Assembly (NCBI GenBank): GCA_965202665.1 | Contig: OZ241841.1 | Span: 544,001 to 608,000, forward strand | Direction of reading: 5' to 3' | DNA: 64,000 bases | From: Candidatus Spongiisociaceae bacterium | Lineage (GTDB): Bacteria; Actinomycetota; Acidimicrobiia; Spongiisociales; Spongiisociaceae | In this document: positions 53,356 through 55,085 of the stretch, piece by piece | Numbering within the stretch: position 1 is the stretch's first letter | How the letters are laid out: every line of letters starts with the position of its first letter | Translations under genes and position numbers: made by a program | Notes under the pieces: generated by a model | Told to the model about the DNA's origin: nothing | The model's input: the letters and a program-made list of their open reading frames with translations, nothing else | Database searches by the model: none

Positions 53356-55085
53356 TTATCCTTTCTTACTAGGTAAGTGTATCTCATATGGTATTTGGCA
53401 AAATGCTATACCAAGATCACTTAAAAATCGTTGGCCCATATATTTACCGGGCGCAAAAACAATCGCCTTTCTATCTTTGCTTCTATTGCGCTTGCCGATA
53501 CGGACCGCATGTTCTTCTTTGAATATAGAGTCAGGACTTTTCAGCCATTCATGAGAAGGCCGATAAAACAAATAATAATCTCGTTCGTCATCACTATAAA
53601 ATAAGAAGTCCTCATTTCTGGGTGACAAATCATTATAGTTAGACGAAACACCGGAAGCCGTATACAAAATGTAGGCAGCTAAGGCTGGGTATTCCGGCAA
53701 CAATTCGCCGTTTAACATTTCCTCAATTTCGATAGGATCTCCTAGCGTGCAATACGTGAAAGATCCACCTAAACCTTCTGATAATTGTTTATTCTCGGCA
53801 TCCGGAATACCAGCAATCGCCCGACGGATTCTTTCGGCAGTAATTTCATTAGCATAATTTTCGCATTCCACAAGAATAAATTGGCGACTATCATTATTTT
53901 CTTTATTCAATTGTAAAACCGCATGAGCAGTAGTACCGCTACCAGCGAAAGAATCAAGTATTATATCCTTGGAGTTTGGAGCGCCAATTTGCAACAAGTC
54001 ATACATCAACGTTATCGCTTTAGGATATGGAAATGGTATAGATGCATCAGGTATCATATCTTGCAGTGTCACCCCTCCGGCACGGCTTCCGTACTCCGGC
54101 TTATAAAAAACAGTCTTTGGTTTCTCTGTTGGTATGTCCCAAAGCAAAGGGCGTTGCTTCGACTTTATTATGATACTACCATCCTTTCGACGTCCAATAA
54201 CTATTTCAGATGGGTTACTGCGTATCTTATTTTTACCCCATCTCCATATAGCCTTTTCCTTATTTCTAACCTTAGGATAAACTGCTGTATACGGGCCGCC
54301 ATCAGTTGGTTCTTTATCGTCATCCGTAATAACAAAATTACCATCTGGGTCAACAAATATTGGATAGTCCAAAGATTTAGAGTAAGATAAACTCCCTCTT
54401 TGTAGCTGTTCAAGTTTATAATAACCGACTTCGTCTTTATGCCATTCTGAGTGAATAATAGCTTCGTCAACTTCAAAGGACCCTAAAACGGCTTTATTAT
54501 GTATTTTGGCATACGCTAGACAATATTCGTGAGCACCCGCAAAACCAAACTGATCGCTACTGCCCGCAAGATTGGAAACTACAGCTATGCAGGTGATAAA
54601 GTTATCTGCGCCAAAAATTTCGTCCATCATCATTCGGAGATGGTGCTGTTCATTGTCATCAATCGAAACGAAAATGACGCCCTCGTCGGATAAAAGTTCG
54701 CGTAGCAAATGCAAACGAGGCCACATCATGCATAACCATTTATCATGTCGCTCCAAATCCTCACCGTCTACCGGAGCTACTTGTTCGAGCCATTCCTGCA
54801 TCTGAGTACTGTTCACACTGTCGTTATAAACCCAGTCTTCCTTACCCGTGTTATACGGTGGATCAATGTAAATGCATTTAACCCTACCGGCATACCGAGG
54901 CAACAACGCCTTCAGTGCGTGAAGATTGTCGCCTTGGATAATGAGGTTATCGTCAGCCGGGGGGGGGGGGGGGGCGAGTCGCTGGATGGTACGGATTTGG
55001 CCCGGTCAGGCACCAGCGGACGATAGGGCACCGTCAGGTGGTGAGCGTAAATGTACTGCTTGCCCTTGAAATCCAAGGTCGGCAT
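53356..55085 (-). CDS. mod: Type III Mod adenine methyltransferase, out of frame at a C16 tract (candidate phase-variable gene)
   Basis: MPTLDFKGK... at 55085 joins ...DDNLIIQGDNLHALKALLPRYAGRVKCIYIDPPYNTG only if the tract length changes; DSFAGSGTT present. Confidence 0.88.
54959..54974 (-). repeat. Homopolymer tract, G16 on + strand (C16 on coding strand)
   Basis: 16 consecutive G; a length of 14 or 17 would put mod in frame. Confidence 0.9.

Follow-up and report, generated by a model that had tools for sequence, protein, structure and literature searches.

A type III mod gene in a sponge-associated actinobacterium contains a tract of 16 cytosines whose length sets the reading frame, while the remainder of the gene is intact. 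With a probability of about 0.7, this tract is a slippage-driven ON/OFF switch of an intact type III system, in other words phase-variable restriction-modification (R-M). The gene lies in the window, the whole 64,000-nucleotide stretch of Candidatus Spongiisociaceae DNA (genome G000) that was analysed, and the tract begins 110 bases into it (Table 1). A preliminary description of this DNA had placed 16 C between ...SVPSSDS and ADDNLIIQGDNL, predicted a premature stop at 54912, expected a full-length Mod with 14 or 17 C and called the tract the longest homopolymer of the window; each of these statements agrees with the letters and their translation. The runner-up among runs of at least 8 bases is a single G8 at 2396. 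Translation keeps mod open at 8, 11, 14, 17 or 20 C, and 15 C is also OFF, with a stop after 43 residues. Re-initiation at a TTG (54906) past the OFF stop is conceivable but was set aside, since the product would lack the conserved NLIIxGDN strand, which presumably binds SAM.

Table 1. Features of the mod-res locus, in window coordinates.
Feature	Position	Strand	Remarks
5' part of mod (ATG 55085, MPTLDFKGKQYIYAHHLTVPY...), 59% GC	54975..55085	-	GGAGG-type ribosome-binding site ahead; N-terminus common to homologues
C16 homopolymer (G16 on +)	54959..54974	-	codon 38 of mod, variable N-terminal linker
Premature stop in the C16 frame, 57-aa product	54912..54914	-	translation
3' part of type III mod, 533 aa, 41% GC	53356..54958	-	no internal stop; DPPY catalytic and FAGSGTT SAM-binding motifs
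Type III res, 850 aa, intact	50798..53350	-	GGGKT, DEAH, SATP and GRVMR helicase motifs; PDF...YETKG nuclease motif
mod-res insert, 4.4 kb, 41% GC	50771..55144		between dtd and a UvrD/PD-(D/E)XK helicase-nuclease gene, whose ends converge
dtd (D-aminoacyl-tRNA deacylase)	55150..55605	-	64 nt upstream of mod, same strand

Apart from the tract, the system appears complete. The 3' part of mod matches PF01555 and PADLOC MTase_III (E 2e-136) and resembles the solved Mod subunits EcoP15I Mod (4ZCF), Mbo45V (7DSU) and Mod 6K0W at E about 1e-43. Its DPPY and FxGxG motifs stand on either side of a target-recognition region, the layout of type III Mod proteins. DPPY and FAGSGTT align with the three structures, whereas the target-recognition region is a different one and about 45 amino acids, rather than about 95, precede the NLIIxGDN strand. 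The res gene had been described as intact, and it is: its open frame begins 5 nt past the mod stop, residues 1-837 match PADLOC REase_III (E 6e-184), and the protein is 53% identical to the intact Res of the relative G001 over 849 columns. SF2 helicase motifs are joined by a C-terminal PD-(D/E)XK-type nuclease motif, as type III R-M requires, and neither mod nor res carries a second lesion.

The pair is an insert, because its flanking genes abut directly in G001, a genome of the same genus whose empty site (L161) matches window positions 49275-50770 and 55145-55611 back to back. In the public sequencing run X3, a deep contig (depth 495) departs from the window at 55149 and continues with letters that resemble the helicase gene's end. 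This suggests that the dominant strain there likely has the empty site as well; the insert has a depth of 3 in that run. Given the empty site in G001 and, likely, in X3 and the low depth of the insert, mod-res is strain-variable. The adjoining helicase-nuclease gene is presumably AdnB-like. No sigma-70-like promoter was found at 54800-55800, so the mod transcript likely comes from the dtd side. Elsewhere in the window, a C5 cytosine methyltransferase gene without a repeat (43028-44107) stands directly ahead of the helicase-nuclease pair, and a unit of about 111 bases occurs in three imperfect head-to-tail copies (55680-55960) at the start of a DUF222-HNH frame.

Mechanistically, slipped-strand mispairing would alter the tract at a high rate, aided by the apparent lack of MutS and by a NucS presumably blind to small indels. 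A slip to 14 or 17 C would give a full Mod with a few extra prolines, which the linker probably tolerates; this N-terminal linker differs in length and sequence among homologues. The OFF state would be harmless: without Mod, the sites would stay unmethylated and restriction would cease. Type III Res cannot cut without Mod, and OFF cells would simply lose the system. The outcome would be a cell population with differing restriction barriers and methylomes.

NucS is present in G000, and no match to MutS was found in this genome, which is 94% complete. According to the available part of PMC11551767, NucS leaves 1-2-base indels unrepaired in M. smegmatis; slippage is therefore probably frequent. 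Loss of NucS and gain of DinB were considered as causes of the tracts and rejected: both are spread over tract-rich and tract-poor relatives (NucS 36/41, DinB-family 40/41). Because NucS and DinB also occur in tract-poor relatives, repair status does not explain the tracts of the clade.

A long tract at this site exists in nature. Four public runs were compared over 53300-55620, using contigs of unrecorded library type in which rare variants are hidden. X1 and X2 come from one sample, possibly the source of the assembly, and X3 from another study. The tract is 16 bases long in the X1 contigs and 15 in the X2 contigs, both OFF lengths. Over the 1,671 bases of 53300-54970, an X3 contig (depth about 3) is identical to the window and breaks off 12 bases inside the tract, giving at least 12 G there; the X4 contigs hold pieces of mod outside the tract. 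Long tracts are thus seen in three runs from two studies, and none of these three runs (X1, X2, X3) yields an in-frame allele of this mod. The preliminary description had cautioned that the exact length might be mis-sequenced, and the modal length is indeed uncertain by at least one base; the difference between 15 and 16 may be a sequencing error. It had also called the tract long and slippage-prone, of which the length is real and the slippage only likely. Its idea of reversible defence fits the intact res, although only the OFF lengths 15 and 16 have been seen at this locus.

Sequence comparison points to a recent origin of the tract. The G001 homologue reads DSPPSDDNL, with interrupted proline codons, an open frame and no tract, and the G000 Mod reads DSP(P)n-ADDNL at the same place. 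The closest homologues in the family, in G001 and G009, lie elsewhere in their genomes and lack the tract, which is therefore not conserved in this Mod subfamily. Among the best 80 of 599 confirmed GTDB matches, none of this subfamily has a G/C run of at least 11. A protein scan of the best 80 of 438 JGI metagenome loci found no tract inside mod and no locus from this species, and the exact tract flanks gave 0 matches in JGI metagenomes. Repeats near the mod start occur in only three of the best 80 of the 599 GTDB loci: L080 (Dehalococcoidia) has an in-frame G9 at position 3468, in the linker that holds C16 here, and may have gained it there independently; L124 has a tetranucleotide repeat; and L095 has an A11 just upstream of the start. 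As the simplest history, we infer that C16 was newly gained when a short C run of Pro-Pro codons expanded, within an operon that would itself be a recent, strain-variable import.

The tract is one of many in its genome. G000 is a single 2.77-Mb contig of 64% GC in which G/C run lengths are bimodal, with 865 runs of 7, 96 of 8, one of 9, none of 10 and 75 of at least 11. Because the counts drop at 9-10 and then rise to 75, the long runs are not chance. Of the 76 runs of at least 9, methylase genes hold 26 and other defence genes 7, promoter spacers account for 24, and the remaining 19 lie elsewhere. The seven other defence tracts fall in hsdS (twice), HmaA, SspB, PDC-M33A (twice) and a helicase gene beside a type IIG enzyme. 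An inventory of five Pfam families, with other methylase families uncounted, arrives at 36 methylase genes covering 3.2% of the genome, and 19 of them, mod included, carry a repeat. An even spread would place 2.4 of the 76 runs in methylase genes against the 26 observed, a contrast to be read with care because gene spans were extended across repeats and because four type ISP paralogues hold 12 of the 26, which makes the counts non-independent; the enrichment P values therefore overstate the contrast. Shorter runs show no such enrichment (11 of 865 7-mers and none of 96 8-mers). All three long non-homopolymer repeats, (AC)12, (GA)28 and (CAACA)12, also lie within methylase genes, which argues against a homopolymer-calling artefact. 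In the proposed scheme, mod would join a set of contingency loci formed by the 19 methylase genes, the 7 further defence-gene tracts and the 24 promoters.

Several of these loci deserve mention in their own right. Type ISP R-M genes with G tracts are found at L027, L028 and L029 (G000:C1:1191744-1232872) and at L156 and L157 in G001. Each of the four type ISP genes of G000 carries 1-4 G tracts. Several of these tracts fall in the C-terminal specificity domain; by analogy with two-tract type IIG enzymes of H. pylori, the genes may alter specificity as well as ON/OFF state. A type I hsdS gene (L034:3409-3419 and 4046-4057) is out of frame at each of its two C tracts, which lie at codon 6 and between the two recognition domains. 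Five of seven DUF1156 (HmaB-like) methylases (L247, L023, L025, L057, L035) bear repeats, including (AC)12 and (CAACA)12, with three repeat-bearing ones in tandem at C1:456900-466132, and one HmaA helicase is split by C11. G/C tracts also lie in SspB (phosphorothioation; L030:3719-3729) and in two PDC-M33A candidate defence genes (L024:4093-4104, L039:3190-3201). An hsdM gene (L022:2950-3000, C1 about 140985) has an in-frame C13 and, outside any repeat, a separate frameshift that is either a real lesion or an assembly error.

A second class of tract sits in promoters. At 24 sites of G000:C1, the design TTGACA-N4/5-G11..13-TA(G/A)(C/G)(G/A)T, with 15-17-base spacers, recurs mostly before giant SLH/Calx-beta/FG-GAP surface-protein genes (for example 486753-514321, L047-L051 and L054). 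Domain scans of 18 genes behind such promoters gave 15 with SLH domains, 2 with Calx-beta only and 1 without a match. One tract promoter faces a methylase-HNH gene (C1:846185). The design also occurs in G001, and in G001, G004 and G009 the signal-peptide region of some such genes contains a G run as well.

Relatives share this profile to differing degrees. Runs of at least 11 number 81 in G001, 76 in G009, 74 in G004, 45 in G022 and 44 in G013. Single-contig assemblies elsewhere in the family (G002, G008, G015, G019, G020) have 3-15 long runs, and 21 of 24 family genomes have at least one. G039, flagged as unpublished, enters only the tallies of relatives and supports no claim. Among 16 genomes of other families, 12 have no run of this length, 3 have one each and G033 has 15, about half of them at contig ends. 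The gap at 9-10 recurs in G001 (0 runs of 9, none of 10, 81 of at least 11), while 9- and 10-mers do occur in the genus g4 genomes G004, G009 and G013, so that the threshold is clade-specific. Tracts of 9-16 bases lie in mod genes of G001, G004, G009 and G013, several at protein positions matching G000 genes. In all 13 relatives' loci chosen for a tract near a methylase match, the tract proved to lie inside the gene; the 13 methylase genes hold 14 tracts, 3 in frame and 11 out, and both ON and OFF lengths are seen at other mod genes of relatives. A further G000 tract (L246 comparison) is G13 in G000 versus G5 in the dominant X3 strain among the matches listed, so tracts come and go among strains. 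Also among the matches listed there, an X2 contig is identical save for one gap and ends within the G13 mod tract. A -1 difference at the L246 promoter tract was set aside, as paralogous promoters confound it.

Against known systems, the locus is familiar in kind. The available parts of the cited papers form the basis of comparison. In a REBASE survey, 662 of 3805 type III mod genes contained repeats, some of them in environmental species, with up to 4 per species (PMC5909438). The present gene shares with those mods the mod-res pair, a mononucleotide run above the 9-base threshold (at least 9 within the mod frame) and a frameshift that leads to a short product. It differs in its poly-C coding strand, its N-terminal linker position, its uncultured, sponge-associated actinobacterial host and its tract-free closest homologues. 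The supplementary gene list of that survey may hold similar actinobacterial cases. The preliminary description had placed the candidate outside the usual pathogens: the host is indeed a sponge-associated actinobacterium, but such a setting is not novel in itself, since environmental mod repeats had already been published in PMC5909438.

The likeness to published phase-variable genes raises the alternative that the switch is mainly epigenetic, with Mod ON/OFF altering promoter-near methylation and the expression of a regulon, as for ModA and ModH. The anatomy is the same, regulon control applies to every characterised case according to the available part of the survey (PMC5909438), and surface-protein promoters vary in G000 too, so phenotypic variation matters. 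H. influenzae ModA, as covered in the accessible text of PMC1976455, likewise has a 5' repeat in mod that controls translation, a res downstream and strains with an empty site; unlike the present gene, it has a tetranucleotide repeat and a demonstrated regulon. There, dedicated phasevarions are defined by an inactivated res (7 of 41 strains), whereas res is intact here, and a recent, strain-variable insert would have had little time to wire a regulon. A phasevarion, which is defined by a methylation-controlled regulon, is thus unlikely as the primary function, and an effect of this kind is compatible with phase-variable R-M as a side effect.

One-way decay would explain the tracts differently: G/C runs past about 9 would expand by bias without indel repair and persist only in dispensable genes, here silencing a costly import on its way to a pseudogene. 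The gap at 9-10 in G000 and G001 suggests such an expansion bias, only OFF lengths have been seen at this lineage-specific mod tract, and the consensus puts 13 of the 19 methylase genes with repeats out of frame (5 are in frame at their repeats and 1 is shifted in its last part only), with a second lesion in 2 of 19. Yet tracts of random length would leave about two thirds of genes out of frame, and neither mod nor res has a further lesion. Other dispensable low-GC DNA is nearly tract-free: low-GC methylase genes hold 16 tracts in 54 kb, whereas the other 329 kb of low-GC DNA hold 6, 5 of them in defence genes, and the other 2.2 Mb of called genes contain only 3 of the 76 runs of at least 9, all three in defence genes. 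Matching tracts are also retained across two genera in otherwise open genes. Decay accordingly has a small probability, and phase-variable restriction-modification accounts better for these placements.

Sequencing or assembly error, with a true run that is in frame (14 or 17) or far shorter in an ordinary constitutive mod, is very improbable: the single contig probably stems from long reads, X1 and X2 differ by one base within one sample and an hsdM gene has an unrelated non-repeat frameshift, but at least 12 G recur in a contig from another study, some single-contig family genomes have 3-15 long runs against 74-81 in G001, G004 and G009, ordinary genes are avoided by long runs, non-homopolymer repeats occupy the same gene class, and a mistake of one or two bases would change the ON/OFF call rather than the presence of a slippery tract.

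Taken singly, the gene would be a textbook switch, though in a new host; it is the scale and the place that matter. In H. pylori, 46 candidate phase-variable genes include 9 of the RM class, and two-tract RM enzymes switch specificity, as given in the available text of PMC4209511 and PMC3936762. The two organisms are alike in having many homopolymer or dinucleotide repeats in RM and surface genes and, in some RM genes, two tracts, one near the specificity domain. Unlike H. pylori as described there, G000 has repeats in 19 methylase genes as well as in hsdS, HmaA, SspB and PDC-M33A, four type ISP genes with 1-4 tracts each, and a promoter design used 24 times. A wider proposal, which we advance tentatively and consider somewhat doubtful, is that a clade of sponge-symbiont Acidimicrobiia has placed half of its DNA methyltransferases (19 of 36 in G000) under independent slippage switches, as well as type I specificity, type ISP, Hma and Ssp phosphorothioation genes. 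A nearly clonal population could then carry up to about 2^19 states of methylome and defence, and new imports such as this mod-res would become switches through expansion of Pro/Gly codon runs.

If true, such switching would constitute a far larger combinatorial bet-hedge in defence and epigenetics than pathogens offer, for which the available text gives 4 type III or 9 RM loci. It addresses the question of why sponge symbionts tolerate so many RM genes: if most were stochastically OFF, the load per cell would be lower and the population heterogeneous toward phages and incoming DNA. Sponge symbionts are reported to be rich in restriction-modification genes (PMC5649159), and the word 'phase' is absent from the available part of that paper; a search that was thin on subscription literature found no published phase variation in sponge symbionts or in this family. 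In practice, anyone reading a metagenome-assembled genome can easily take such frameshifts for homopolymer errors or pseudogenes and pass over them.

The species itself is present in X5 (sponge) and X6 (marine), as long, close contig matches indicate, and the records describe 5 of the 18 listed runs as sponge metagenomes. In the window, the gene of a 1584-aa surface protein (57328-62082) is followed by ISL3 and IS481-like transposase genes; the protein contains three long repeats and matches SLH at its C-terminus. At G000:C1:1172644, 2167818, 2390131 and 1652180, promoter-like G/C tracts lie upstream of frames of about 2,900-12,700 codons, as delimited by a crude gene caller.
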